A DNA stretch of 64,000 nt, from the NCBI GenBank assembly GCA_020057295.1, contig JAGVGF010000003.1:160001-224000 (forward strand). Direction: 5' to 3'. The stretch is from an archaeon. Its GTDB lineage: Archaea > Nanobdellota > Nanobdellia > Woesearchaeales > UBA9642. Position numbers and translations under genes: made by a program. The notes beneath the pieces are model-generated. The model saw nothing but the letters and a program-made list of their open reading frames with translations, did not search any database and had not been told where the DNA came from. Positions 412 to 56,497 of this stretch are shown in pieces (the stretch's first letter is position 1; every line of letters begins with the position of its first letter).

Positions 412-431
412 TATTTGATTTGGGGGTATAC

Positions 432-1562
432 ATGAATGATGTTTTAGAGAAGGAAAGAGTAATAGTTCAAGAAAAACCTTTTCAAAGAAATTGGACTCAC
501 GAATATTTAGATCAATTGCTAGATACATTACCACAAATTAATTCTCATAATCCATCTAATCCAGAATGGCGTGAAACACCATTAATAAAATTAGATCTTA
601 ACAATTACGGTTCTAAAAAGAGAAATGTAAGAGTTCTTGTAAAAAATGAGGCTGACAGAACAAGTAATCCTGAAGGTCTTCTAAAAAATAGAATGGCACA
701 CGAAGTTGAACCAGTATTTTATAGACATGTAGCAGAACATTTATGGAGACAAAAACTTAATGGACAGTTGCATTTAATTCCATTACCATTACAAACTATG
801 TGCACAGCAGGAAATGCCGGAATGGTTCTAGCAAAAGCTGCAGAAAAATATGGTTTACCTCCTGTAAAATTATTACTTGACATTCACACTCCTTCAAACA
901 TTCTTGAAGCATTAAAAAAATCAAGGGCAGATATTTATCTTGCACCCTTAGATAGAAATGTTTTCACAGGAAAAGATGAACCTTACAGCCCATTACAACT
1001 AAGAATTTTAACGAACAATAATACGGGATTTGATACGACTTCTTCACATTCACCGATTAATCCTTTCAAGGATTACTATGATTGGCATTGGCATGAAATA
1101 TTTAATAAGCAACCATCAAGAGTTTATGGTCCATTCGGTACAGGAGATTGGTTCTCAAATGGAATAACATGGCAGAGAGAAACAGTCTATAATGGAGAAA
1201 CACGTAAAGATCCAAGATTAACTGCAGATATTTCTAGAGTAACAGATATTAGTATACTTGCTGCAGAGCCTGAATTACAAACAAGTTTAGCAAGAAAACT
1301 TACAGGATTAAAACCTTTCTTATATTATACAGAGAACGATATTACAGCTATGAAATTATCACGCTTCACAGGAAAAGATACAGGAGTTTACAAAATAAGT
1401 GAAGATTATTTGAAAGAAGGATTCAACATATTAAGTCATGTTGTAGAAACTTCATATGACGGATCTTCAGGAATGGCACTTTTAGTCAAAGATTTTGATG
1501 AAGGAAAATTAAAACCTGGAGAAACATATATTGCAGTAAATACTGGGAGGGGACTAGTATGA
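432..1562 (+). CDS. Divergent PLP-dependent enzyme, fold type II (Trp synthase beta/Cys synthase/Thr synthase superfamily)
   Basis: ETPLIKL, VKNE..SNPEGLLKNR (Schiff-base Lys region), TAGNAG, PFGTG phosphate loop, C-terminal AVNTGRG. Start placed at ATG 432 after GGGGG. Confidence 0.8.
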   Translation: MNDVLEKERVIVQEKPFQRNWTHEYLDQLLDTLPQINSHNPSNPEWRETPLIKLDLNNYGSKKRNVRVLVKNEADRTSNPEGLLKNRMAHEVEPVFYRHVAEHLWRQKLNGQLHLIPLPLQTMCTAGNAGMVLAKAAEKYGLPPVKLLLDIHTPSNILEALKKSRADIYLAPLDRNVFTGKDEPYSPLQLRILTNNNTGFDTTSSHSPINPFKDYYDWHWHEIFNKQPSRVYGPFGTGDWFSNGITWQRETVYNGETRKDPRLTADISRVTDISILAAEPELQTSLARKLTGLKPFLYYTENDITAMKLSRFTGKDTGVYKISEDYLKEGFNILSHVVETSYDGSSGMALLVKDFDEGKLKPGETYIAVNTGRGLV

Positions 1563-1708
1563 AATACAAAGTCTGCATCTCAGTGGATGAAGAAACGTTA
1601 TTAAAAATCAGAGAACATATACGTAAAGGTAAATTCAGAAATAGATCTCACGCTTTCGAATACGCAATTTCTAAAGAATTCATAGCACAAGGTGATGCTC
1701 ATGAGTAA
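1559..1708 (+). CDS. 49-aa ribbon-helix-helix (CopG/Arc/MetJ-like) DNA-binding protein, absent from the ORF track
   Basis: MKYKVCISVDEETLLKIREHIRKGKFRNRSHAFEYAISKEFIAQGDAHE*: alternating beta-strand, helix, then F-x-N-R-S helix-B cap. ATGA overlap with the upstream stop and an 8-nt overlap with the downstream start. Confidence 0.8.
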   Translation: MKYKVCISVDEETLLKIREHIRKGKFRNRSHAFEYAISKEFIAQGDAHE

Positions 1709-3827
1709 ATCATTAAAAGTTTCACTACAAAAATTACTTGGTAGTAGAGCACACTATTCTTATTTGAGCGATGTTGTATTTCCAGAATTAGAACAACTAG
1801 TGGCTGATAATATTATTGTTCCTCAAGAATTACGTAAAATAAGAGAGAACGTCGAATCTAAAGGTGTTGGTATATTAAATCCTGAAGTATCTTTTAGATC
1901 AGACATAACACGTAATACTTATGAGGCTGATGGTTGGATTGCTGAAACAGTTAATGAACTTGCTCCAGGAGTAAATGTTTCACACATTATTAAGAAATGT
2001 TCATCTAAAGAAGATTTCAAACGTAGTGTTAGAACTTATAGATCACTCGAAAGTGCATTAAAAGATACTCCTTATCAAGGCAAAATTCCTAAACATTTTT
2101 ACGCTATAAAATCAAAAAAAATTATTGACGCGCCTTTTGTAAAGGGAAAAATACTTTCAAGAGAATTAGATGAAAGTTCACAAGAAGACAAAGAAGCGTA
2201 TCTAAAAGGATGTATTGCAGATTATATAGATTTTTACAAATTTTTGAATCAACCTGAAGTTTCTCAGAAATTAGATTTAGGGCAATTATCAGATTTTAAT
2301 GAATTTTTCTTCTTCAAGTATTCAAAGAGCGGACCATTATTCCAATTATATCAGAGGGATATCGGTAATGATCTGAATACCGTTGGTAAGAAAGTTATTC
2401 AAGGAGACTTAGTTCCAACTAACGTTCTACACGGTGCAGAAAATGCATCTGATTTTTCATATGTAGATTGGGGTAATGCAGTAAACAATGGATTTTTAGA
2501 ATTTGATATAGGATATTTATTAAAAAAATCTAAAGTAACTCCTGAAGTTGAAGAGAAATTAGCAAGATATGCTGCAGAATTAGCTTATGATACTTCTGAA
2601 GATAGAGAAAGATCATTTAAGATATATACAAAAAATATGATTACACAAGAATTATTATCTGCTAGAAGATATGTTGATAGATCAAAATCTAAGGATATAA
2701 TTGACTCGGATCAAAGAGTTTCTTTAGAGAATATGGCTTTAGTAAATTATAATCGTGCAGTTGCAAGAACAAGAACTGCTGTAAATCGTGGAATTGTTAG
2801 TCAAGAATTTTTGAATGCTTTAGTTGATCAACCTATCGATGGATTAAAAGTTGTAGAAAATTATGATCACTTACTAAAAGATTGGGATCCAGATGGGTCT
2901 ATGTCGCAAGACAATTTAGTTCCAAAAGATATTACAAAAGCAGAACAATATGATCCAAAAAAGAATTTGAAAGCTATAAAGAAAAGCATATTCCGTGAAA
3001 GATCCCGTTCATTGACTTATTCAGCCTTGAAAATATTTGCTGTAGTCAGCGCTCTAAGTATGGCTGGAGGAATAATCTATAATCAGAATAGGGAAACTGA
3101 AATGCTAAAGGAAGATGCTGAAAAGACAAGAATAAGTTATCTTCAAGATAACACCACAAATTTATACGAAAGTTTATTCAGACGTCAATTCGATCTGGTT
3201 TCGAGAAGATTTGCCGAGGGATACAAGCAACTTAGTTTTAGAGAGAACGACACGAGAATTGACAGTGTAGCAAAAAAATATCAACTTGATCCACAATTAA
3301 TAAGGAATATAATGAAGGTCAATAGAGTATATGCTGGATACACTACTTTGGCTAGTGACCAAACCCTTGATGTTGAGGGAATCAGTGTTGCTGATTGTAT
3401 ATCTATGGCTGACTCAATTAATGAAACGAGACGTATGAGTACGTTTTATTTGCGTGATAATGAGGTAGAATCACTTGATCCTGTCAAGAATCTTGAGGCC
3501 TGTGCGCAAAGATTAAGTAAATATTTTAAAGAAGAAAAAGAAAAAACACCTCTAGAATCTGTAGGTTCATATGAAATATATGTCACAGAGCTCAATAAGC
3601 GTGTCTTAACAAGATTTTTCTTTCCATTTACGGAGAAAAAAGAACTTAATGTTGGAGAAAAAAGTTATCACATGCCTTATGGAGATTTCAGCGAATTAGA
3701 AATGAAAGATATACGTGATAGGGTTGTTAGACAGTTAGTCTATAATGCGATGTATGGAATATCTCACGGCGCGGAGTTCGGGCATTTGTATAGTTCATCA
3801 TTAAAAACCCCTCCGGATAATTTTTAA
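1701..3827 (+). CDS. Membrane protein: APH/choline-kinase-like phosphotransferase domain, one TM helix, C-terminal degenerate SLT/lysozyme-like domain
   Basis: IQGDLVPTNV and VDWGNA (Brenner-like catalytic and metal motifs), FLEFDIGYLL; TM LTYSALKIFAVVSALSMAGGIIY (3012-3080); IDSVAKKYQLDPQLIRNIMKVN and LDPVKNLEACAQRL resemble SLT motifs. GGTGA RBS before ATG 1701. Confidence 0.65.
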   Translation: MSKSLKVSLQKLLGSRAHYSYLSDVVFPELEQLVADNIIVPQELRKIRENVESKGVGILNPEVSFRSDITRNTYEADGWIAETVNELAPGVNVSHIIKKCSSKEDFKRSVRTYRSLESALKDTPYQGKIPKHFYAIKSKKIIDAPFVKGKILSRELDESSQEDKEAYLKGCIADYIDFYKFLNQPEVSQKLDLGQLSDFNEFFFFKYSKSGPLFQLYQRDIGNDLNTVGKKVIQGDLVPTNVLHGAENASDFSYVDWGNAVNNGFLEFDIGYLLKKSKVTPEVEEKLARYAAELAYDTSEDRERSFKIYTKNMITQELLSARRYVDRSKSKDIIDSDQRVSLENMALVNYNRAVARTRTAVNRGIVSQEFLNALVDQPIDGLKVVENYDHLLKDWDPDGSMSQDNLVPKDITKAEQYDPKKNLKAIKKSIFRERSRSLTYSALKIFAVVSALSMAGGIIYNQNRETEMLKEDAEKTRISYLQDNTTNLYESLFRRQFDLVSRRFAEGYKQLSFRENDTRIDSVAKKYQLDPQLIRNIMKVNRVYAGYTTLASDQTLDVEGISVADCISMADSINETRRMSTFYLRDNEVESLDPVKNLEACAQRLSKYFKEEKEKTPLESVGSYEIYVTELNKRVLTRFFFPFTEKKELNVGEKSYHMPYGDFSELEMKDIRDRVVRQLVYNAMYGISHGAEFGHLYSSSLKTPPDNF

Positions 3828-4729: not shown

Positions 4730-4771
4730 AACAATGGTTAAGCACAAATAATATATAAATATTTCGAATTT

Positions 4772-4797
4772 ATCTATATATCTATATACATATATAG
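4772..4797. promoter_or_regulatory. Candidate operator in divergent promoter (CTATATA-ca-TATATAG plus tandem TCTATATA)
   Basis: Perfect 7-bp inverted repeat 4782-4797 between the regulator and the liv operon. The region is very AT-rich, so chance occurrence is possible. Confidence 0.4.
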
Positions 4798-4967
4798 TAT
4801 ATATTAAAAAAATATATATAAGTGGTTGCTGTTTCTATATTAAACGTCACTACTACAAAGATACAACCATTGTTCGGGGGTAAAAACGTGTAGTGCCAAA
4901 TGGGGGATAGCAAACAAGACAGAAATGTCAAAAAACTATTTCTCAAAAAAATTCACATTAAAAAACT

Positions 4968-5079
4968 ACGGGGGAAAAATAAAATGAATAAAACAATAAT
5001 TGGAATGTTTAGTTTATTTTTAGTAGCTTTATTTATAGTTGGATGTACACAAACACCAACTGGACCAACAGGTCAAGTA
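4968..5079 (+). repeat. 112-bp direct repeat, copy 1 (RBS + signal peptide + lipobox + linker)
   Basis: About 5 mismatches against 6154-6265 by manual alignment. Confidence 0.95.
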
Positions 5080-6123
5080 ATAGATAATAGCAATATACAA
5101 ACAGCAACACCAACAGTAGCAAAACAAACAATAGTTATCGGTCAATCTGCAGTATTAACTGGCGATTTAGCAAGTTTAGGCCAAGGTGCGGCTAACTCAG
5201 CAGCATTAGCCTTATCAAAACTTCCAGCAGATACAAAATATAATTATAAAATAATTTTAGAAGATGATAGGCTTGACGGAAAAACAGCAGCATCTATTGC
5301 ACAAAAATTTGTAACATCAGATAATGTTGATGCAATCATAAGTTTCAGTTCAGGAATGGGTAATGTATTTAGTCCTATAACTGAATCTAATAAAATTATA
5401 CATTGTGGAATTGCATCAGATAAAGCAATTGCTAATGGAACATATAATTTCTTACATTGGACAACTCCAGAAGAAGAAAATAAAGTAATGATTAGAGAAT
5501 TGAAAGTACGTAATGTTACAAGAATAGGATTTCTAGCGATGAATCAGCAAGGAGCAATTGCAATATTAGATAATATTAGATTACAGGCTGAGCCTGTTGG
5601 AATAAAAGTTGAAAGTCAAATATACAATCCTGGAGAAAAAGATTTCAAGACTATATTATTGAAATTTCAGGAGCAAAATGTAGACTATATTGTACTACAG
5701 GCATTTAGTCCTGAACTAGAAATATTTGCAAAGCAGTACAAGGAATTAGACGTTAAAACACCAATGACCAGTATTGAATCTTTCGAGTTCAGTGATCAAC
5801 CACAATTATTCGAAGGATTATGGTATGTTCAATCAGCAGATGCAACTTCAGAGTTTAGAACTAATTACAAAGCAACATACGGTAAAGACTTCAAACCAGG
5901 ATCACCAAATGCTTACGATTGTGTAAATCTAATAGTTAAAGCATACGAAACTGCTGGAAACGGAAAAACAAAGCCAGCACAGGATGTTGTAGCAAAAGAA
6001 TTTGCTAAGATACAAAACTTTCCTGGAGCATTAGGACCACTAACTGTAGATCAAAATCATATCGTACAAAGTCATGCAGTCGTTAGAGTAATAACAAACG
6101 GAACACCAATAACAATCGACTAA
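4984..6123 (+). CDS. Liv-type ABC substrate-binding lipoprotein 1
   Basis: Signal with lipobox FIVG-C; IGQSAVLTGDLASLG, EDDRLD, KDFKTILLK, AYDCVNL, FPGALG (periplasmic binding protein type 1). Start at ATG 4984 after GGGGG. Confidence 0.9.
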   Translation: MNKTIIGMFSLFLVALFIVGCTQTPTGPTGQVIDNSNIQTATPTVAKQTIVIGQSAVLTGDLASLGQGAANSAALALSKLPADTKYNYKIILEDDRLDGKTAASIAQKFVTSDNVDAIISFSSGMGNVFSPITESNKIIHCGIASDKAIANGTYNFLHWTTPEEENKVMIRELKVRNVTRIGFLAMNQQGAIAILDNIRLQAEPVGIKVESQIYNPGEKDFKTILLKFQEQNVDYIVLQAFSPELEIFAKQYKELDVKTPMTSIESFEFSDQPQLFEGLWYVQSADATSEFRTNYKATYGKDFKPGSPNAYDCVNLIVKAYETAGNGKTKPAQDVVAKEFAKIQNFPGALGPLTVDQNHIVQSHAVVRVITNGTPITID

Positions 6124-6153
6124 ACATGGAATTTTTTTATATTAAATAATATA

Positions 6154-6265
6154 ACGGGGGAAAAATAAAATGAATAAAACAATAATTGGAATTTTTAGTT
6201 TATTTGTAGTTTGTTTATTTATAGTTGGATGTACACAAACACCAACTGGACCAACAGGTCAAGTA
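6154..6265 (+). repeat. 112-bp direct repeat, copy 2
   Basis: acgggggaaaaataaaatgaataaaacaataattggaat...ggaccaacaggtcaagta, shared with 4968-5079. Confidence 0.95.
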
Positions 6266-7324
6266 GTAACTAATACACAAGCAGTAAAGACTCAAGAACC
6301 AATCAAGTTCGGTATAATTATGCCATTGACTGGCGATGCAGCAAGCATAGGACAATCTGTAGTTAATGCAGTAAATTTAGCTGCTGAAGAGATCAATGCA
6401 AAAGGCGGCATTGATGGAAGAAAAGTAGTAATCCTAGCGGAAGATGGTAAATGTAATGGTAAAGATGCAGTAAACGCAATGAACAAATTAGTATCTGTGG
6501 ACAGTATACATTACATGATTGGTGCAGGATGCAGTTCAGAAACATTAGCAGTAGTACCCATTGCAGAAGCAAATAAAGTAGTAATGTTAAGTCCAGCAAG
6601 TTCAAACCCTTCGATAACTAATTCAGGAGATTATATATTTAGAGATTATCCTTCTGATTCGTTTGCAGGAGATTTCGCAGCAAAATACATATATGATGGT
6701 GGCGCAAGAACAGTTGCAATAGCATCTTGTCAAAGTGATTATTGTACTGCAATCGGAGATGTTTTCGCAAAGAAATTCAAGCAGCTTGGTGGAAAAGTAG
6801 TCTTTAATGAACAATTCCCAATGACGACAACAGATATGAAGACAATATTATCAAAGATAAAGGATGTAAATCCTGATATGATATATATGCCATCATACAC
6901 AGAATCAACAATACTAGCATTCAAGCAGGCTAAAGAATTAGGAATACCGTCCGACAAATTTTTCGGAGGAGATGCATGGGATGATCCAAAGATATGGACT
7001 AGCACAAGTGGATTTTCCGATGGTGCAAAATATACTTTAGTAGGAGCAGATGTTCCACAAGAATTCAAACAAAAATATGTTAACAAGTATGGTCCAGATA
7101 TGGCATTAACTTTAGGAGCAACTCAAGGTTATGATGCATTATACGTCTTCAAGAAAGTAATAGAACAAGCAGGAGACAATCCAGAAGCCGTAAAGACAGC
7201 ATTATACGATGTCCAAAACTATCATGGATATTCTGGAACAATAAGTTTTGACAGTAACGGAGACTTAAAGGAATCACAATATAGTGTGATGACTATAAAG
7301 AACGGAAAAGCTGTGAAAGAATAA
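6170..7324 (+). CDS. Liv-type ABC substrate-binding lipoprotein 2 (LivJ/LivK-like)
   Basis: PLTGDAASIG, EINAKGGIDG, EDGKC..GCSS Cys pair, YIFRDYPSD, GYSGTISFDSNGD. Confidence 0.93.
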   Translation: MNKTIIGIFSLFVVCLFIVGCTQTPTGPTGQVVTNTQAVKTQEPIKFGIIMPLTGDAASIGQSVVNAVNLAAEEINAKGGIDGRKVVILAEDGKCNGKDAVNAMNKLVSVDSIHYMIGAGCSSETLAVVPIAEANKVVMLSPASSNPSITNSGDYIFRDYPSDSFAGDFAAKYIYDGGARTVAIASCQSDYCTAIGDVFAKKFKQLGGKVVFNEQFPMTTTDMKTILSKIKDVNPDMIYMPSYTESTILAFKQAKELGIPSDKFFGGDAWDDPKIWTSTSGFSDGAKYTLVGADVPQEFKQKYVNKYGPDMALTLGATQGYDALYVFKKVIEQAGDNPEAVKTALYDVQNYHGYSGTISFDSNGDLKESQYSVMTIKNGKAVKE

Positions 7325-7398
7325 ATATTTTTATTTTTTTTATTTAGTATTACAATAATTATAATAGAAATGATAATAGATTTTTGGGGGAAATTAAA

Positions 7399-7914
7399 AT
7401 GACAAAGAATTATGAATTAACTGTTCAACCAGGATTGGTTGTTAGAGAAACATACACTGTAAAGTTTGATAAAATATCAAAACAACAGGCGCCACAAGTA
7501 GATGGTTCGTTCAAAGCACCTTATGTTGCAACTGTAGAAGTTCCATTAGGTGAAGAAGGCGTTTCAGTAATCTCAGATGGTAGCGAGTTTATTGCAGATT
7601 TCAGAAAAAGAGGTAATAACACACCAAAGAGAATATTGAATCTAGGCAAATTAGTCTATAAAATTATAGCTAGTGAATGTGGAGCAATATTCAGTAAGAC
7701 AGACAAGAGTGTAGTTTCATACACCGGATTGCCTGTAGAAGCCGAAGAAGCTGTAAAACGTGCTGAAGAAGATTTCAAGAAAGCATGGAGTGCATACAAC
7801 GATGCAAGATTCTTACCAGAAGAGCGAACAGTACTTACAAAAAGAGAAATGGTACGTGTAACTCCTAAAGGTATAGAAAGAGTTCCTGCAGAAACATTAG
7901 ACGATAAGATGTAA
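7399..7914 (+). CDS. Hypothetical cytoplasmic protein
   Basis: 171-aa ORF with GGGGG RBS, followed by a T-rich tract; no motif recognised. Confidence 0.75.
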   Translation: MTKNYELTVQPGLVVRETYTVKFDKISKQQAPQVDGSFKAPYVATVEVPLGEEGVSVISDGSEFIADFRKRGNNTPKRILNLGKLVYKIIASECGAIFSKTDKSVVSYTGLPVEAEEAVKRAEEDFKKAWSAYNDARFLPEERTVLTKREMVRVTPKGIERVPAETLDDKM

Positions 7915-7983
7915 TCTTATCAATTTTTTATTTTTTTATTTTTAATATTATAATCACAATCAAAAAATAATGTTGGGGAAAAC

Positions 7984-8655
7984 ATGAAAACACCTTACTA
8001 TCACAACTATATTCAAGCCGTGGATCATCCATTGCCTGAATTGAAAGAGACATTCGAAAGAGAGACAGGTCTCTTATTAACATATGTGATAGAAACTACA
8101 GAGGCAGGCTCTACAATTGTAGATTTAGGTTGCGGAATAGGAAGACCATTAATCGATTTAGCTTTTTCGTATGCAACAAGAGAATATTTTGGAATAGATA
8201 ACGATCCTAATATGATTCGAATAGCTAAAAGACGTAGAAACAGGGGAAATGTAAGATACAGAATTAATTTATCGACGCAAAATTTTTTGGAATCAAATAT
8301 AGATAGTGCTTTTTCAAATTTAACATATTCAACATATAATTCCATCGGTCATCTAACTGATATTGAAAAGGAATTATTGATTAAAGAAAAATCTAGAATA
8401 ACACGTTCGGAAGGACATGTTATTACTGTAACTTGGAATAGAGATGAAAGAACAACAGAATTTTTACAGAAATACTATCCACATATAGGATTAAAAATAA
8501 TCTATTCTAGCGAAAATGGGACTGTTACAGATCAAGGGTCTTTTGATAGAGTACATCCGAGCAGAATAATGGATTTGTATAAGAGATTTAACATAAAACC
8601 TGTAGATGTTCAAGATTTAGGTTTATGGACCGCAGTCATAGGAAGAAAACAATAG
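7984..8655 (+). CDS. Class I SAM-dependent methyltransferase
   Basis: IVDLGCGIGR motif I, GIDNDPNMIRIA, YNSIGHL. Confidence 0.88.
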   Translation: MKTPYYHNYIQAVDHPLPELKETFERETGLLLTYVIETTEAGSTIVDLGCGIGRPLIDLAFSYATREYFGIDNDPNMIRIAKRRRNRGNVRYRINLSTQNFLESNIDSAFSNLTYSTYNSIGHLTDIEKELLIKEKSRITRSEGHVITVTWNRDERTTEFLQKYYPHIGLKIIYSSENGTVTDQGSFDRVHPSRIMDLYKRFNIKPVDVQDLGLWTAVIGRKQ

Positions 8656-8667
8656 GAGGAAATTAAA

Positions 8668-9846
8668 ATGAATAAAAAATTTGATAAAAATTTTTGGTAT
8701 GTTTTTGGAACATCAGTTGGCATAATTGTAGTTGCTGTACTGATTGTTATGATGATTGTAGATTTAAGTACAACTAAAGGACTAACAGGTCAAGTAATAA
8801 AAAATAAAGATTCTATAAAATTAGGTCTTATCACTCCATTGACTGGTGATGCAGCATCATTTGGTCAAGCTGAATTAGATGCAACAAATATTGCTATAGA
8901 TGAAATTAATTCTAAAGGCGGAGTTAATGGTAGATTATTACAATTAATCCCTGAAGATGGAAGATGTAATGGAAGAGATGCAACAAGTGCTGCTCAGAAA
9001 TTAATTAATATAGATAAAGTAAGAATTATTTTAGGCGGAGCATGCAGTGGAGAAACATTAGCAATCGCACCAATATCAGAACCAAGCAAGATAATATTAT
9101 TTGCCGCATTCTCTAGCAGTCCAAAAATAAGTGATGCAGGAGAGTATATTTTCAGAAATAGTCCAACAGATAATGATTGGGCACCAATAATGGCTGAAAC
9201 GTTAACAAAACAAGGTTATAAAAAAGTTGCAGTTGTAACAGAAAATACAGATTATGCAATGGGTGTTAGAGATATATTCAAAGTAAAATTTAAGGAACTT
9301 GGTGGAACAATAGTTGCTGATGAAGTATACAGTCAAGGATCCAAGGATTTCAGAACACAAATACTAAAAGTAAAAGATGGAAATCCTGATGTAATATTCG
9401 TAAATCCGCAAGATGATGTATCAGGCGCGTTGCTTGCAAAACAATTAAGAGAATTAGGAGTAAATACTCCATTTTATAGTGCATTCTTCTTAAGCAGTCC
9501 AAAAGCTATAGAATTAGCAGGATCTGCAGTCGAAGGAGCAACATACTTAGATGTAAGAGATTTGAGTACAAATGCAGGGAAAGCTCTTATTGAAGAATAT
9601 AAGAGAGAAAAAGGAACTCCTGTAAGTGAATTTATCATAGGAGCAAATTATGATAGAGTTTACATAATTAAGGGAGCTCTAGAAAAATGTTCTGAAGATA
9701 CTACTTGTATTAAGAATTATCTTTACACTATAAAAAATTACGAAGGAGTAATCGGAACATACGGTTTCAAAAGTAATGGCGATATGGACACAGTGTTCTT
9801 ATCGATGAAAAGAATCGTAAATGGAACTTCAATCGTACTAGAATAA
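8668..9846 (+). CDS. Liv-type ABC substrate-binding protein 3 with N-terminal TM anchor
   Basis: TM FGTSVGIIVVAVLIVMMIV; PLTGDAASFG, EDGRC..GACSG, YIFRNSP, DFRTQILK. Confidence 0.92.
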   Translation: MNKKFDKNFWYVFGTSVGIIVVAVLIVMMIVDLSTTKGLTGQVIKNKDSIKLGLITPLTGDAASFGQAELDATNIAIDEINSKGGVNGRLLQLIPEDGRCNGRDATSAAQKLINIDKVRIILGGACSGETLAIAPISEPSKIILFAAFSSSPKISDAGEYIFRNSPTDNDWAPIMAETLTKQGYKKVAVVTENTDYAMGVRDIFKVKFKELGGTIVADEVYSQGSKDFRTQILKVKDGNPDVIFVNPQDDVSGALLAKQLRELGVNTPFYSAFFLSSPKAIELAGSAVEGATYLDVRDLSTNAGKALIEEYKREKGTPVSEFIIGANYDRVYIIKGALEKCSEDTTCIKNYLYTIKNYEGVIGTYGFKSNGDMDTVFLSMKRIVNGTSIVLE

Positions 9847-9862
9847 GCTTATTTATTTTCAA

Positions 9863-9918
9863 GGCGGCACGAGTTTATGCTATCCCTAATAGTAATTTAC
9901 ATAAATTCACGTGCCGCC
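9863..9918 (+). other. GC-rich stem-loop between the third binding-protein gene and livH
   Basis: GGCGGCACG-AGTTTATG ... CATAAATT-ca-CGTGCCGCC: perfect 9-bp basal stem plus an 8-bp upper stem. Confidence 0.75.
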
Positions 9919-9941
9919 GAGATACTTTAAAGAGATGAAAA

Positions 9942-10037
9942 ATGAAAATATTTACAAAAATATTATTGTTGTCATACGCGACAGTTTTTGTAGTGTCAGC
10001 AATAGTAGATATTATATTAAAAAGCTTAAAAGGATAA
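9942..10037 (+). CDS. Possible 31-aa single-TM peptide
   Basis: MKIFTKILLLSYATVFVVSAIVDIILKSLKG*, co-oriented, within the 225-nt gap before livH. Confidence 0.35.
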   Translation: MKIFTKILLLSYATVFVVSAIVDIILKSLKG

Positions 10038-10071
10038 AAATATAAACACATTATGCCAAAAAGAGGTAAAT

Positions 10072-10953
10072 ATGATACTTGCACAATTAATTGCTAACAG
10101 CATCATCATTGGTAGCATTTATGCATTAGTTGCTGCAGGCTTCGCGTTAGTCTATTCTACAAATAAATTCATGCACTTTGCACATGGTGTTATGGTTGCA
10201 TTTAGTGGATACATGTTATTTTTGATGTTTTCTATATTAGGCGTAAATTTTTACATATCTTGTTTTATTACTTTAATACTTGCAGGATTATTAGGTTGGA
10301 TTTCTTATAGGGTTGTTTATGAACCTTTACAGAAACGTAAATCTTCTAATGTTATACTATTAATAGCATCATTAGGATTATTAATATTGTTAGAGAATAC
10401 TTTAATGATTTTTTTTGGTCCAGACATAAAGACTATAAATTATTTCGGCATCGCTAAAGGAATAGATATTCTAGGAGCAATAGTTACTCCTATACAGATT
10501 GCAATTATAATAATCACGTTAGTTTTACTTGTAGGATTATATTTTTTTATGAATAAATCTAAGATTGGTAGAAATATGCGTGCAGTAGCAGATAATAAAG
10601 AATTAACAAGTATAACGGGAATAAATTATAGATCTATTGCAGATTTATCATTCATAATAGGTTCAGTGCTTGCTGGAATTGCAGGAATACTTATAGCAAT
10701 AGAACAAAATTTGACTCCAGCAATGGGTACTGGATTAATAATTAAAGGATTTACTGGAGCGGTAATTGGAAGTATAATGTCTGTTCCAGGATCAATAATT
10801 GGAAGTTACATCCTAGGATTTGCAGAAAATTTTGGAGTATGGTTTTTACCATCAGAATATAAAGATGCGATAGCATTCATATTATTATTTATATTCCTAT
10901 TATTCAAACCAAACGGACTTTTCGGAGTAGACAAAGGAGTAAGAAACAAGTGA
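10072..10953 (+). CDS. livH: Branched-chain amino acid ABC permease LivH
   Basis: GSIYALVAAGFALVY..FMHFAHG, IGRNMRAVADN, LLFKPNGLFG. Confidence 0.93.
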   Translation: MILAQLIANSIIIGSIYALVAAGFALVYSTNKFMHFAHGVMVAFSGYMLFLMFSILGVNFYISCFITLILAGLLGWISYRVVYEPLQKRKSSNVILLIASLGLLILLENTLMIFFGPDIKTINYFGIAKGIDILGAIVTPIQIAIIIITLVLLVGLYFFMNKSKIGRNMRAVADNKELTSITGINYRSIADLSFIIGSVLAGIAGILIAIEQNLTPAMGTGLIIKGFTGAVIGSIMSVPGSIIGSYILGFAENFGVWFLPSEYKDAIAFILLFIFLLFKPNGLFGVDKGVRNK

Positions 10954-10957
10954 AAAA

Positions 10958-11833
10958 ATGATAGAAGCATACCTTATACATTTACTAATCCTGGTAGGAA
11001 TTTATAGTGTATTAGCTGTAAGTCTAAATTTAGCTCTAGGAAATACCGGATTAATGAATATGGGTCATATTGCATTTTTCGGAATAGGAGCTTACACTTC
11101 TGTAATATTCACGAAAGATTTGGGTGTTCCATTCTTTGCAGCATTTCTGATTGCTGGACTATTAACGAGTGTATTTGGATTTATACTAGTGTATGCTACG
11201 AGAAAATTACGTGGAGATTATCTTGCTCTTGCAACTTTAGGATTTAGCTTCGTGATTTATAGTTTAATGCTTAATTGGAGTTCTGTAACAAGAGGACCAT
11301 TAGGAATACCTGGAATAAGTAAACCTTGCTTCTTCGGATTATGTATCGCTAATAATTTACAATATCTAATATTTGTGTTAATAATCTCAGCAATATCAAT
11401 TGCTATAATGTATATTATTGTAAATTCTAGTTTTGGAAAGTTACTTGCTGCAACAAGAGATGATGATATTGGATTGAGAGCATTAGGAAAAAATACATTC
11501 ATGTTAAAATCAAAGGCATTGATGATATCGGCTTTCTTTGCTGGCATTGCAGGAAGTTTATTTGCACACTACATAACTTATATTGATCCATCATCATTCA
11601 TGCTTTCAGAAGTTATACTAATATTTACTATAGTTATTGTTGGAGGAATAGCTTCAATAAAGGGAAGTATTGTATCAACATTCCTTATAATATTAATTCC
11701 TGAATTGTTAAGATTCCTTAACATTCCAAGCAGTGTGCTTGGACCAGCAAGACAGATAATTTATGCATTAATACTTTTAGTGATAGTTTTATGGAGGCCT
11801 AAAGGTTTATTTGGAAAAATAGATCTTGAATAA
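10958..11833 (+). CDS. livM: Branched-chain amino acid ABC permease LivM
   Basis: SLNLALGNTGL.NMGH.AFFGIGAY, LRGDYLALATLGF, TRGPLGI, RPKGLFG. Confidence 0.93.
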   Translation: MIEAYLIHLLILVGIYSVLAVSLNLALGNTGLMNMGHIAFFGIGAYTSVIFTKDLGVPFFAAFLIAGLLTSVFGFILVYATRKLRGDYLALATLGFSFVIYSLMLNWSSVTRGPLGIPGISKPCFFGLCIANNLQYLIFVLIISAISIAIMYIIVNSSFGKLLAATRDDDIGLRALGKNTFMLKSKALMISAFFAGIAGSLFAHYITYIDPSSFMLSEVILIFTIVIVGGIASIKGSIVSTFLIILIPELLRFLNIPSSVLGPARQIIYALILLVIVLWRPKGLFGKIDLE

Positions 11834-11845
11834 TTAAGTGAAAAA

Positions 11846-12589
11846 ATGATATTGCAAATAACTAATTTAACAAAACATTATGGAGGAATTCATGCACTTG
11901 ATAAGTGCACATTAGATATTGCTCCTAAAAAGATAACTGCAATAATTGGTCCAAATGGTTCAGGAAAAACTACGTTGTTCGATGCAATAACTAAACTAAT
12001 AACAGTAGATGAAGGACGAGTAGTTTTAAATGGTAAGGACATAACTAACATGAATGATTATGATATTGCAAAATCAGGAATTTCAAGAACATTCCAACAA
12101 GTTAGATTATTCAAAAATTTAACAATCAAAGAGCATCTAGAAATCGCGTTAAGAGTTGATGACGAAAAATTATTCAAAGTTTTATTAAATAAGGTATTTA
12201 TTAAAGAAAAAAATAATACTCACAAAATTAAAGAAATTCTTGCACTAGTGGGTTTAGACAAACCTCTTGAAACTTATGCTTCAGATTTAAGTTATGGGCA
12301 ACGTAAACTTTTAGATTTAGCAATAGCTATTGCAAAACCACATACAATATTATTATTGGATGAGCCTGTGGCAGGAGTAAATCCAAAATTAAGAGTAGAA
12401 ATTGTCAACATAATAAAGAAGTTAAAATCTTTAGGAGAAACAATTGTGTTAATAGAGCACGATATGAATTTTGTAATGGGTCTAGCAGATACAGTGTTTG
12501 TATTAGAGGCAGGACGGGTGATTGCGAATGGAAAACCATCAGAAATACAAAACAACAAAAGAGTATTAGAGGCATATTTAGGAGGATAA
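11846..12589 (+). CDS. livG: Branched-chain amino acid ABC ATPase LivG
   Basis: GPNGSGKTT, SRTFQ, LSYGQRK, LLDEPVAG, IEHDM, VLEAYLG. Confidence 0.93.
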   Translation: MILQITNLTKHYGGIHALDKCTLDIAPKKITAIIGPNGSGKTTLFDAITKLITVDEGRVVLNGKDITNMNDYDIAKSGISRTFQQVRLFKNLTIKEHLEIALRVDDEKLFKVLLNKVFIKEKNNTHKIKEILALVGLDKPLETYASDLSYGQRKLLDLAIAIAKPHTILLLDEPVAGVNPKLRVEIVNIIKKLKSLGETIVLIEHDMNFVMGLADTVFVLEAGRVIANGKPSEIQNNKRVLEAYLGG

Positions 12590-12613
12590 ATACTTAAGAG
12601 TATTAAAATTAAA

Positions 12614-13321
12614 ATGTTATCAATAAAAAATTTACATGCAGGATATAATGGACTGAAAGTCCTGAAGGGCATAGATGTACATGTCAAACCAAATGAGATA
12701 GTTGCATTAATAGGTCCGAATGGCGCAGGAAAATCTACTGTCATAAAAGCAATATTCAACATAGCAAACGTTTATGATGGTAAAATTATTTTTAAAGATA
12801 AAGATATAACTAATATGAAAACACATCAGTTAATGAAATTAGGAATAAGTTATGTAAACCAAGGAAGAATAAATTTTGGAAATCTTACTGTTGAAGAAAA
12901 TCTTACAATAGGCGCAGATTCAATCCATGATTCTAGTGTAGTAAAGAAAAATTTAGATGCAGTATATAAGAAATTTCCTGTACTTAAAGAGAGAAGAAAA
13001 AGTTTAGCTTACGGATTAAGCGGTGGGCAACAACAAATGTTAGCGTTAGGAAGAGCATTAATGCACAAGCCATCATTATTATTACTTGATGAACCATCGT
13101 TAGGATTAAGCCCGTTATTACAGAAACAATTATTCAAAATAATTCAAGACTTGCGCGATGATGGAATTTCTATATTAATTGTTGAACAGAATGCTAAGCG
13201 AGCTATAGAAATGGCTGACAGAACTTATGTTCTTGAAGATGGTAAAATTGCATTGATGGGCGGAAAAGATATCGTAAACCATGAAAAGATAAAAAGTGTA
13301 TATCTTGGCGGTAGATATTAA
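12614..13321 (+). CDS. livF: Branched-chain amino acid ABC ATPase LivF
   Basis: GPNGAGKST, LSGGQQQMLALGRAL, LDEPSLGLSP, VEQNA. Confidence 0.93.
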   Translation: MLSIKNLHAGYNGLKVLKGIDVHVKPNEIVALIGPNGAGKSTVIKAIFNIANVYDGKIIFKDKDITNMKTHQLMKLGISYVNQGRINFGNLTVEENLTIGADSIHDSSVVKKNLDAVYKKFPVLKERRKSLAYGLSGGQQQMLALGRALMHKPSLLLLDEPSLGLSPLLQKQLFKIIQDLRDDGISILIVEQNAKRAIEMADRTYVLEDGKIALMGGKDIVNHEKIKSVYLGGRY

Positions 13322-46788: not shown

Positions 46789-46896
46789 GGCGACTGCCGG
46801 GGATTGAACTCGGTCCTCAGGCTTTCTGCCTTGTATAGTCCACAAGCGTGAACTGTAATCCACAGGCCTGCATGCTACCATTACACAACAGTCGCC
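46789..46896 (-). tRNA. tRNA-His(GTG) with encoded G-1 and a 36-nt intron at 37/38
   Basis: G-1 GCGACTG...CAGTCGC C73; anticodon stem CAGGC/GCCTG; loop CT-GTG-G|intron|A; central helix CTGT:GCAG with an AA|A bulge; TTCAATC T-loop. Confidence 0.92.
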
Positions 46897-47137: not shown

Positions 47138-47253
47138 GGGTGTGTAGCGCAGCTTGGATAGCGCGACAGCCTTCTATTTGACTGCGTCTAATCCTTTTTG
47201 GACGCAACCAAAAAGTAAGCTGTAGGTCCGGGGTTCAAATCCCCGCACGCCCG
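47138..47253 (+). tRNA. tRNA-Arg(TCT) with a 41-nt intron (47177-47217) at 37/38
   Basis: GGGTGTG/CACGCCC acceptor, GCGC D-stem, ACAGC/GCTGT anticodon stem, CGGGG-TTCAAAT-CCCCG; TATA box at 47104. Confidence 0.93.
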
Positions 47254-48046: not shown

Positions 48047-48118
48047 GCGGGTATAGCCAAGCGGTAAGGCAGTCGCCTGCAGAGCGACCATGCATGGGTT
48101 CAAATCCCATTACCCGCT
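48047..48118 (+). tRNA. tRNA-Cys(GCA), intronless
   Basis: GCGGGTA/TACCCGC, GTCGC-CTGCAGA-GCGAC, ATGGG-TTCAAAT-CCCAT, U73. Confidence 0.95.
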
Positions 48119-56180: not shown

Positions 56181-56497
56181 GTAGGGTAGCGCTTGGTTGT
56201 GGGTAGCACATCTTAAACGGTGTGCAGCTCAGGAAAGTCCGCCCACTAAATAAAGGTCACTTACGGAAGTAAGAACTCTAATAAGGTTGGCTCCAACTCA
56301 GAAACGGAACCTGATGTTATAGGGATGATGGATAAAATTCTTGGCGACAAGATAATAAATCCTGACGTCGTGACATCGATGGTTGAAACGGTTAGTCCTG
56401 ACCAGTGCAACTGCAGAACGCAGGCTTAGTCGAATACCAAGAAGATTTGCTCGTCGCAAGGCGAAGATCTACAGAAGGCGGCTTACAACTACCCTAC
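56181..56497 (+). ncRNA. rnpB: RNase P RNA (archaeal)
   Basis: P1 GTAGGGTAG/CTACCCTAC; P4 AGGAAAGTCCGCC with ACAGAAGGCGGCTTA; AGAAAC and TGAAAC loops; GTGCAA; TATA box at 56153; T-run at 56501. Confidence 0.93.

Follow-up and report, generated by a model that had tools for sequence, protein, structure and literature searches.

The subject of this analysis is a gene within a 64,000-nucleotide stretch of DNA, referred to here as the window, from an archaeon of the order Woesearchaeales (GenBank assembly GCA_020057295.1, contig JAGVGF010000003.1, positions 160,001 to 224,000 of the forward strand). Its product, a protein of 708 amino acids designated P0001, brings together three parts that are predicted to lie inside, within and outside the cell membrane, respectively: a kinase of the aminoglycoside phosphotransferase/choline kinase (APH/ChoK) type, a single transmembrane helix, and an ectodomain that is related to the soluble lytic transglycosylases (SLT; glycoside hydrolase family GH23) and carries an asparagine in place of their catalytic glutamate. 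The function favoured here, with a confidence that does not go beyond an even chance, is that of a single-pass receptor-type kinase in which a pseudo-enzyme serves as a glycan sensor and steers the neighbouring regulator and uptake genes. The three-part architecture had been put forward in a preliminary description made from the sequence alone, which knew of no description of it, and full-text literature searches gave no paper with a title or listed abstract that describes it, although the supplementary tables of one study (PMC8204110) may list the family. New here are the gene cassette in which the kinase is found, with its ribbon-helix-helix (RHH) protein, its AbrB-domain regulator and its Liv-type importer, and the variant proteins in which the parts are combined with a Hanks-type kinase or with a methyltransferase.

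The open reading frame (ORF) extends from 1692 or 1701 to 3827 on the forward strand, and the ATG at 1701 was chosen as the start, in agreement with the N-termini of homologues. The five coordinates in the preliminary description all proved correct by arithmetic on the translation: QGDLVPTNV corresponds to residues 234-242 (from nucleotide 2400), VDWG to residues 255-258 (from 2463), the hydrophobic helix to residues 438-460 (3012-3080), IDSVAKKYQLDPQLIRNIMKVNR to residues 520-542 (from 3258) and LDPVKNLEACAQRL to residues 592-605 (from 3474). By itself P0001 gives no Pfam or NCBIfam match at E<=1 and no match among PDB sequences at E<=10, and a word-indexed homologue search with it retrieved one relative only (P0002, 56% identical), such that an exhaustive search was needed for the family to emerge. 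HMMER, run exhaustively against 1.84 billion cluster representatives (50% identity), gave 58 proteins at E<=1e-3, P0001 included; 35 of these match at E<=1e-30, and lengths are mostly 650-850 amino acids. Together with P0002 they make up the 59 sequences of the family alignment (A2). A Pfam scan of these 59 members finds APH in 43 and TCAD9 in 24 (both at E<=0.01), Choline_kinase in 8, Pkinase in 4 and SLT in 3.

The identity of the cytoplasmic part rests on both its modelled fold and its motifs. An AlphaFold2 model of residues 1-440, built from a 48-row alignment, has a mean predicted local distance difference test (pLDDT) score of 89.5, and a Foldseek comparison of this model with the PDB gives 34 matches at E<=1e-3, all with a probability of 1.0. 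The best is 5-methylthioribose (MTR) kinase at E 6.3e-6, after which come PsiK, APH(2'') and choline kinases with values to 1e-3, in keeping with the APH/ChoK fold that the preliminary description had expected of the N-terminal half. The catalytic residues are nearly invariant in the family alignment (D236 in 54 of 56 members, N241 in 53 of 56 and D256 in 55 of 56), and the histidine of the HGD motif is replaced by glutamine in three of 56, P0001 among them. The segment that follows D256 reads NGFxEFDxxKLL, which is of the APH/ChoK type rather than that of a Hanks activation loop, and the Pfam scan finds no Pkinase match in P0001, which places it outside the Hanks-type kinases. The APH cut-off of 23.2 bits is reached by 7/12 relatives inspected singly, and for the kinase a language-model atlas points only weakly to APH (score 0.83). 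The predicted fold and the motifs place the domain in the APH/ChoK branch of the kinase-like superfamily, and, with its catalytic residues all present, it is probably active.

What, then, is the domain that is held on the other side of the membrane? The AlphaFold2 model of residues 464-708 (41-row alignment, mean pLDDT 90.1) consists of a stalk helix, a core of helices and, at the C-terminus, two beta hairpins. When seven ectodomains were made into a profile of their own (A5) and run against all PDB sequences, 8 sequences in all were found at E<=10, and the top three are lytic transglycosylases of the MltC type: 9vi7_A, 'lytic transglycosylase c', at E 5.2e-6, E. coli MltC at 1.7e-3 and a third at 1.9e-3, with the next match at 0.11. 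The relationship is also apparent within the archaea. For this comparison a reference profile of 27 SLT domains from the same archaeal order was used (30 loci were fetched, and the partial matches L060, L063 and L065 were dropped before alignment), against which 49 family ectodomains align in hhalign with a probability of 94.7% and an E of 5.8e-8 over 86 columns. The Pfam SLT model (PF01464) matches four of the seven ectodomains at E<=1 (P0001 at 0.23), and these, like the matches in the three whole proteins, all lie below the 21.3-bit cut-off. In Foldseek searches of the PDB the 17 best rows are all goose-type lysozymes or lytic transglycosylases (best E 0.066, probability up to 0.97), and among the viral models of BFVD the PRD1 transglycosylase (E 0.047) heads the list together with phage SLT proteins.

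The catalytic centre has not been retained. Asn541 is aligned to the glutamate of MltC 'IMQTESSFN' and to that of archaeal SLT 'AIIAQESGGN', with the serine that follows replaced by Arg542; two independent profile alignments thus agree with the earlier observation that the ES of the enzymes reads NR here. In the A2 alignment the catalytic column holds asparagine in 37/49 members and glutamate in 0/49, and upon re-alignment the figures are 33/49 and 1/49, whereas in the true SLTs glutamate is found in 27/27. The other motifs that we take to define the SLT/GH23 family have changed as well: where GLMQ would be, both profile alignments place a variable, non-conserved segment with the family consensus xNxLDP, as the preliminary description had noted in finding no such motif, and AYNxG has become ALxxFYxP. 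The SLT-like motifs that are present are conserved among homologues (N597 in 40/43, the glycine at 601 in 39/45, L605 in 38/43). Judged from these alignments, the ectodomain is a diverged SLT/GH23 homologue that fails the catalytic test, a predicted pseudo-enzyme, and as the glutamate has been lost from a homologue of this kind we infer that binding is its most plausible function. Between P0001 and P0002 the ectodomain is 32.8% identical as against 70.6% for the cytoplasmic part, and across the family the mean identities are 22.4% (42 sequences) and 30.3% (52 sequences), respectively. By this measure the ectodomain is diverging faster than the kinase, as is usual for sensor domains.

With respect to topology, a hydropathy scan of P0001 reveals one region in which the mean over 19 residues is >=1.5 (residues 440-461) and no signal-like segment at the N-terminus. 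Lysine and arginine residues number five in the 15 positions before the helix and two in the 15 positions after it, and the N-terminal side is the richer in 7/7 homologues (5/2, 6/1, 2/1, 5/3, 6/2, 9/4 and 4/3). This bias, together with the N-terminal location of a domain that depends upon ATP, implies that the kinase lies inside and the C-terminal domain outside, the opposite-side arrangement that had been proposed for the protein at the outset. Neither a non-lysozyme fold of the C-terminal domain, nor a placement of both domains on the same side of the membrane, nor a lack of conservation of the SLT-like motifs was found, these being the three outcomes that the preliminary description had named as fatal to its proposal.

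The family to which P0001 belongs is rare, has a patchy distribution and carries no annotation. At E<=1e-10, homologues are found in 7/401 genomes of the phylum (its own genome counted), spread over two classes, and within the genus in one of nine other genomes. In cluster look-ups the family members stand alone or in very small groups, under the name 'hypothetical protein'. The relatives with the gene are labelled Candidatus Woesearchaeota archaeon or plain archaeon, and further family proteins carry the label Nanoarchaeota archaeon. The records of two relatives, one of them from the same genus, are labelled 'uncultured Methanosarcinales archaeon', which was taken to be an automatic label.

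Some relatives have exchanged one half of the protein for another. P0054 and P0057 match P0001 only from the juxtamembrane region onward, and their N-terminal halves are Hanks-type Pkinase domains (E 5.5e-26 and 8.1e-20, respectively) followed by a transmembrane helix and the whole of the P0001-type ectodomain, asparagine included; the identities are 30% over residues 482-708 (E 4e-19) and 27% (E 4e-15). P0057 is annotated as 'protein kinase [Nanoarchaeota archaeon]'. That the same ectodomain is borne by Hanks kinases argues that it is a module wired to protein kinases. When the P0054 ectodomain was followed through the 401 genomes its matches were confined to 6/7 of the genomes with an APH-type gene (none in G102), and the Hanks form must thus be rarer still. 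Hanks-kinase ORFs as such, mostly of 600-750 amino acids, are common in the phylum (for instance G090:C1:30091-31071), and P0054 has matches in 61/401 genomes at E<=1e-8, a count that includes ectodomain-only matches. Seven divergent members (P0039, P0044-P0046, P0051, P0056 and P0058) are without the DPxxNL block and seemingly have other ectodomains.

In P0004, by comparison, it is the kinase that has been kept (45% identity, E 2.6e-100), and from the juxtamembrane motif onward a methyltransferase takes the place of the transmembrane helix and ectodomain. This methyltransferase is 46% identical over its full length (E 5e-62) to the stand-alone methyltransferase encoded close to P0001 in the window, and the fusion is present on 2 contigs. 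The stand-alone protein is a generic class-I S-adenosylmethionine (SAM) enzyme, the weak best matches of which are archaeal protein-lysine methyltransferases, far under the cut-offs. The fusion would provide a Rosetta-stone-type link between the kinase and the methyltransferase gene.

The genetic setting of the kinase was compared across eight loci, namely the window, G177, G307, G066, G364, G089, G102 and L015, the last from a Woesearchaeota metagenome-assembled genome; a related-locus search with a 9-sequence alignment gave 5 loci. The most constant companion is an AbrB-domain regulator of about 300 amino acids, which is adjacent to and convergent with the kinase gene in 8/8 loci. In seven of these the 3' ends of the two genes overlap by 4-8 nucleotides or are 2 nucleotides apart, and in G102 there is a gap of about 90 nucleotides. 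All six aligned regulator orthologues match Pfam MazE_antitoxin (best E 4.6e-8). Regulators of this family are found in 305/401 genomes of the phylum (six genomes marked as unpublished are counted here, and the kinase is in none of these), often in 4-6 copies, and four are encoded in the genome considered here. Outside the window, the six proteins that match the regulator best (47-81% identity) prove to be the kinase-adjacent copies; a seventh kinase-adjacent regulator, which sits beside the most divergent kinase, is 37% identical, and the remaining paralogues are at <=37%. The AbrB-domain regulator would, from these identities, appear to be a dedicated partner of the kinase. The identities of kinase and regulator drop in nearly the same order across the loci, which fits inheritance as a unit, yet such an order simply tracks phylogeny too. 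The helical domain of the regulator is PhoU-like according to the language-model atlas (score 0.97, with PhoU in 23-41% of cluster members), an identity that is left unconfirmed by the profile searches, as 0/6 orthologues match Pfam PhoU and a profile search of the PDB brings up no PhoU structure. PF01895 matches the genome just once (E 0.29, on contig C3), at a place that coincides with none of the four regulator copies.

A second small DNA-binding protein, of the RHH type, is encoded directly upstream of the kinase in 6/8 loci, where its gene (46-49 codons) overlaps the start of the kinase gene. The copy in the window matches Pfam RHH_1 at E 0.0011, and 5/6 orthologues match, the best at 9.7e-5. 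Upstream again is an ORF of 380 amino acids (420-1562, forward strand), the stop of which overlaps the RHH start; it has a weak PALP (pyridoxal-phosphate enzyme) match at E 8.6e-7, under the cut-off. It was considered as a member of the cassette and set aside, because tblastn found nothing like it (E<0.5) in any of the 9 locus records searched. In L007 (G102), which has no RHH gene, a short ORF that looks, by eye, AbrB/SpoVT-like lies directly upstream of the kinase, with a separate AbrB-plus-PIN-like pair, likewise judged by eye, nearby. On the far side of the regulator, and divergent from it, is an operon for a Liv-type ATP-binding cassette (ABC) importer that stands beside the regulator in 6/8 loci, with one other contig too short to tell. 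The cluster in the window holds 3/5 of the Peripla_BP_6 genes of the genome. In the gap that separates the regulator from the first binding-protein gene, positions 4752-4820 contain AT-rich, TATA-like repeats (ATCTATATA twice, and overlapping palindromes), which could be promoters, operators or mere AT-rich DNA. The coordinates of all these features are brought together in Table 1.

Table 1. Features of the kinase gene, of its neighbourhood and of the remainder of the window, with further regulator copies elsewhere in the genome
Feature	Position	Strand	Remarks
Kinase-transmembrane-pseudo-SLT gene (P0001)	1701..3827	+	708 amino acids plus stop; three-part protein
Cytoplasmic part, residues 1-400	1701..2900	+	helical N-terminal extension (~residues 1-60, conserved), predicted bilobal APH/ChoK core, helical C-terminal subdomain
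K98, predicted ATP-binding beta-3 lysine	1992..1994	+	K in 51/53 aligned members; inside strand 91-99 of model
Catalytic loop QGDLVPTN (D236, N241) and Mg-binding D256 of VDWG	2400..2468	+	family consensus IHGDLHxxNI...IDW
Single transmembrane helix, residues 438-460	3012..3080	+	sole hydrophobic segment
Predicted extracellular stalk helix, ~41 residues	3093..3215	+	immediately after membrane; helix 2-42 of C-terminal AlphaFold2 model, block pLDDT 90-96
Degenerate SLT/GH23 lysozyme-like domain, residues ~515-645	3243..3635	+	profile homology
Asn541 at SLT catalytic Glu position	3321..3323	+	two profile alignments
C-terminal beta-hairpin subdomain, residues ~650-708	3648..3824	+	model strands 192-201 and 225-237; also kept in Hanks-type relatives
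RHH (CopG-type) gene, 49 amino acids	1559..1708	+	ATG overlaps upstream stop; stop overlaps kinase ATG
Convergent regulator, 301 amino acids	3824..4729	-	AbrB/MazE/SpoVT-type N-terminal DNA-binding domain plus ~250-residue helical domain; stops overlap kinase by 4 nucleotides
Other regulator-family copies, own genome	C1:22525-23424, C1:150623-151396, C5:51131-51778		
Liv-type ABC importer cluster	4900..13321	+	divergent from regulator; Pfam
Three Peripla_BP_6 binding proteins	4900-6123, 6170-7324, 8668-9846	+	
ORF of 176 amino acids	7384-7914	+	no family match; between second binding-protein gene and methyltransferase
Class-I SAM methyltransferase	7984-8655	+	among binding-protein genes
Two Liv-type permeases	10072-10953, 10958-11833	+	
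Two ABC ATPases	11846-12589, 12614-13321	+	
tRNA match, 107 nucleotides long	46789-46895	-	missed by ARAGORN
tRNA match, 116 nucleotides long	47138-47253	+	missed by ARAGORN
tRNA match	48047-48118	+	tRNA-Cys
Archaeal RNase P RNA	56184-56494	+	

The host is an archaeon, as had been supposed: the window contains an archaeal RNase P RNA, the relatives are labelled Woesearchaeota or Nanoarchaeota, and two of the tRNA matches are unusually long and therefore probably contain introns. Its genome amounts to 1.2 Mb in 6 contigs with a completeness rating of 100%, and the window has a G+C content of about 31%. Elsewhere in this genome are SLT domains that retain the catalytic motifs. A protein of 337 amino acids with an intact SLT domain (QES, GIAQ, SYNSG) is encoded on G000 contig C5 (L008 955-1965, reverse strand), and a protein of >1040 amino acids on contig C3 (L010) has an intact SLT-like 'TQES' (PF01464 at E 0.05, weak). 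In the latter a motif like that of N-acetylmuramoyl-L-alanine amidases was seen by eye only. Both proteins appear, from their sequences, to be secreted peptidoglycan hydrolases. SLT domains are present in 49/81 genomes of the order, and such enzymes have been proposed to act on bacterial walls (Castelle et al. 2021, PMC8204110). MurQ, NagA and NagB were not found in the genome, so that a phosphorylated amino sugar would have no canonical pathway to enter.

How might a receptor assembled in this way operate? The dead transglycosylase ectodomain would bind a beta-1,4 amino-sugar glycan, most plausibly bacterial peptidoglycan, or fragments of it freed by the intact SLT and amidase enzymes of the archaeon itself, since the ectodomain descends from enzymes that cleave peptidoglycan and the genome encodes an intact SLT. 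Binding would be relayed via the stalk and the transmembrane helix to the kinase, which may then phosphorylate a protein, the likeliest targets being the AbrB-domain regulator and/or the RHH protein. Phosphorylation of these would in turn alter the transcription of both the uptake operon and the cassette. Such a step has a bacterial counterpart: in B. subtilis the kinases PrkC, PrkD and YabT phosphorylate AbrB in vitro, which lowers its binding to DNA (PMC4837961).

The alternative that deserves the most weight, although on balance we consider it doubtful, is that P0001 is a membrane-tethered small-molecule kinase. Its substrate would be an imported solute, an amine or alcohol head group, or an amino sugar, as with the N-acetylmuramic acid (MurNAc) kinase AmgK, which we take to be a member of the APH fold; the ectodomain would position the enzyme or capture a polymer, and the regulators would merely control the operon. 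The top structural matches are all of this class (MTR kinase, PsiK, APH(2''), ChoK and corramycin kinase), Pfam finds APH in 43/59 family members and Choline_kinase in 8/59, the gene adjoins a complete ABC importer, the pairing of kinase with methyltransferase in P0004 is typical of small-molecule tailoring, and AmgK is a MurNAc kinase (PMC11980594). Against this, two relatives bear the ectodomain on bona fide protein kinases, genes for two DNA-binding proteins are conserved beside the kinase gene, of which the regulator seems to be a dedicated paralogue, and a metabolic kinase has no obvious need of a stalked domain outside the cell; it is for these reasons that a receptor kinase is favoured. 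The weak resemblance of the methyltransferase to protein-lysine methyltransferases also counts against a small-molecule kinase, and the missing MurQ, NagA and NagB detract from the amino-sugar version. Where the preliminary description left it that the protein could let the archaeon sense or scavenge bacterial cell wall, the context thus favours sensing over scavenging, on account of the conserved DNA-binding neighbours, the Hanks-type relatives and the lack of those three enzymes.

The remaining alternatives concern what the ectodomain does and what the cassette is for. Some sensor kinases are known to rely on a periplasmic binding protein as their co-sensor, and the ectodomain could likewise dock a ligand-loaded Peripla_BP_6 protein and report the availability of a solute rather than a glycan. 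The three binding-protein genes at the locus are beyond the need of one transporter, such genes accompany the cassette in 6/8 loci, and the sugar groove may be out of use now that the catalytic and GLMQ motifs are lost; the motifs that are retained (VAxKYgLD, DPxxNLxxGxxRL), however, belong to the SLT scaffold, and in G307 the cassette stands with neither a Liv operon nor binding-protein genes within about 9 kb, which together render co-sensing improbable. It is very improbable that the ectodomain has kept muramidase or transglycosylase activity by way of another acidic residue, which would make the protein a membrane-anchored cell-wall hydrolase with a kinase attached. This would accord with its homology to GH23 enzymes, with a glutamate two positions upstream of the catalytic column in 11/49 members and with the predicted secreted hydrolases of the organism, but P0001 reads K-V-N-R at the site and has no acid there, the catalytic glutamate is as good as missing from the family, and the GLMQ and AYNxG motifs are replaced too. 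Equally remote is a toxin-antitoxin or conflict-type module, with the kinase as toxin and the RHH and AbrB/MazE proteins as antitoxins. The RHH_1 and MazE_antitoxin matches, to which a weak 'doc_partner' match can be added, the overlap of the RHH and kinase genes, the frequency of TCAD9 (a kinase-like domain of conflict systems) in the family and the patchy distribution of the kinase would all be in character. Yet known kinase toxins do not resemble a membrane protein of this size whose ectodomain is conserved, the AbrB-domain regulator has 301 amino acids and comes from a widespread and often multicopy family, the TCAD9 scores are under the model cut-off in all proteins inspected, and the cassette is tied to a transporter operon. 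A type II system comprises a small cytoplasmic toxin and a small antitoxin, and neither P0001 nor its regulator is of that description.

A number of observations weigh against the receptor kinase favoured here. Characterised members of the APH/ChoK class are mostly small-molecule kinases, as are all of the best structural matches, and P0001 itself reaches the threshold of no Pfam model. The Hanks-type fusions amount to two singleton clusters and were not found in the 401 genomes of the phylum, and the swap in P0004 is as compatible with an enzyme pathway as with signalling. The RHH gene is absent in 2/8 loci, and the G307 cassette without an importer counts here too. With regard to the ectodomain, hhalign of the family profile against the single SLT sequences of its own genome returned probabilities of just 0.2% and 3%, and the Foldseek searches gave nothing at E<=1e-3 (best 0.047-0.066, TM-score ~0.3), such that the fold match is not significant alone. 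The case for the lysozyme-like fold that had been anticipated accordingly falls short of what was expected, in that lysozyme-like folds take the top Foldseek ranks, but at E-values that never reach 1e-3.

A more far-reaching version of the receptor kinase is a cross-domain sensor of prey or host, by which a DPANN archaeon would detect bacterial peptidoglycan that it had itself released and, through an APH-fold protein kinase acting upon the AbrB and RHH proteins, would switch on a Liv amino-acid importer. This we hold to be unlikely as it stands; it would represent an archaeal analogue of PASTA-kinase signalling, independently built from other parts. The interest of the locus lies in the fact that partner or prey recognition by DPANN archaea is largely unknown and receptor-type signalling in archaea is poorly mapped, for both of which it is a compact candidate. 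If the ectodomain does bind peptidoglycan, this would give direct molecular support to the view that bacteria sustain, or are lived upon by, some archaea of the Woesearchaeota type (Castelle et al. 2021), and would show besides that an APH-fold kinase can be the output of a transmembrane receptor. The occurrence of one ectodomain on either an APH-type or a Hanks-type kinase offers a natural experiment in receptor assembly.

Comparison with known systems shows how much of P0001 is familiar and how much is not. With the APH/ChoK/MTR kinases (PF01636) it shares the predicted bilobal fold, a Brenner-type catalytic loop and the sequence IDW...G-x-x-E-F-D after the Mg-binding aspartate; unlike them it has a helical N-terminal extension of about 60 amino acids, a membrane anchor, an ectodomain and glutamine for the histidine of HGD. 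With the SLT/GH23 family-1 enzymes (MltC, MltE, Slt70 and goose-type lysozyme) it shares the motif order A-x-KYg-(I/L)-D-P-x-L...DPxxN(I/L)xxGxxYL, with a helix in between that runs up to the catalytic site, profile homology and the top structural neighbours. It differs from these in having Asn for Glu, NR for ES, ALxxFYxP for AYNxG and a variable stretch for GLMQ, as well as in the addition of the stalk helix, the C-terminal beta subdomain and the fusion to a kinase across the membrane. The bacterial phosphate-signalling triad of PhoR, PhoU and PstSCAB resembles the cassette in that a membrane kinase, a possibly PhoU-like protein (on language-model features only) and an ABC importer are encoded together, but the kinase here is not a histidine kinase, the importer is of the Liv type and the regulator has no Pfam PhoU match. 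The enzymes of Castelle et al. 2021 (PMC8204110) belong to the same lineage and domain superfamily and have a proposed target in the bacterial cell wall. As they are portrayed in the accessible part of that paper, however, they are huge and secreted and have the catalytic glutamate, and no kinase fusion is mentioned there; proteins with an intact glutamate are, as noted, also encoded in the present genome.

The closest parallel is with the PASTA kinases PrkC and PknB. These, like P0001, are single-pass proteins with the kinase inside and, outside, a non-catalytic domain drawn from a family of cell-wall enzymes. In PrkC and PknB the ectodomain binds cell-wall fragments (muropeptides) and regulators are phosphorylated inside, whereas for P0001 the ligand is only inferred. 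The likeness may extend to the target, as PrkC phosphorylates an AbrB regulator in vitro (PMC4837961, PMC4478028) and the neighbour of P0001 is an AbrB-domain regulator. The parts themselves are different, the kinase being APH/ChoK rather than Hanks and the ectodomain a dead SLT/GH23 rather than PASTA repeats, and as neither matches P0001 lies outside the PASTA-kinase family. The host, moreover, has no murein wall of its own, so that any peptidoglycan sensed would be foreign. By this analogy P0001 and its relatives would be single-pass receptor kinases with a sensor derived from a cell-wall enzyme, most like PrkC and PknB in the way they work.

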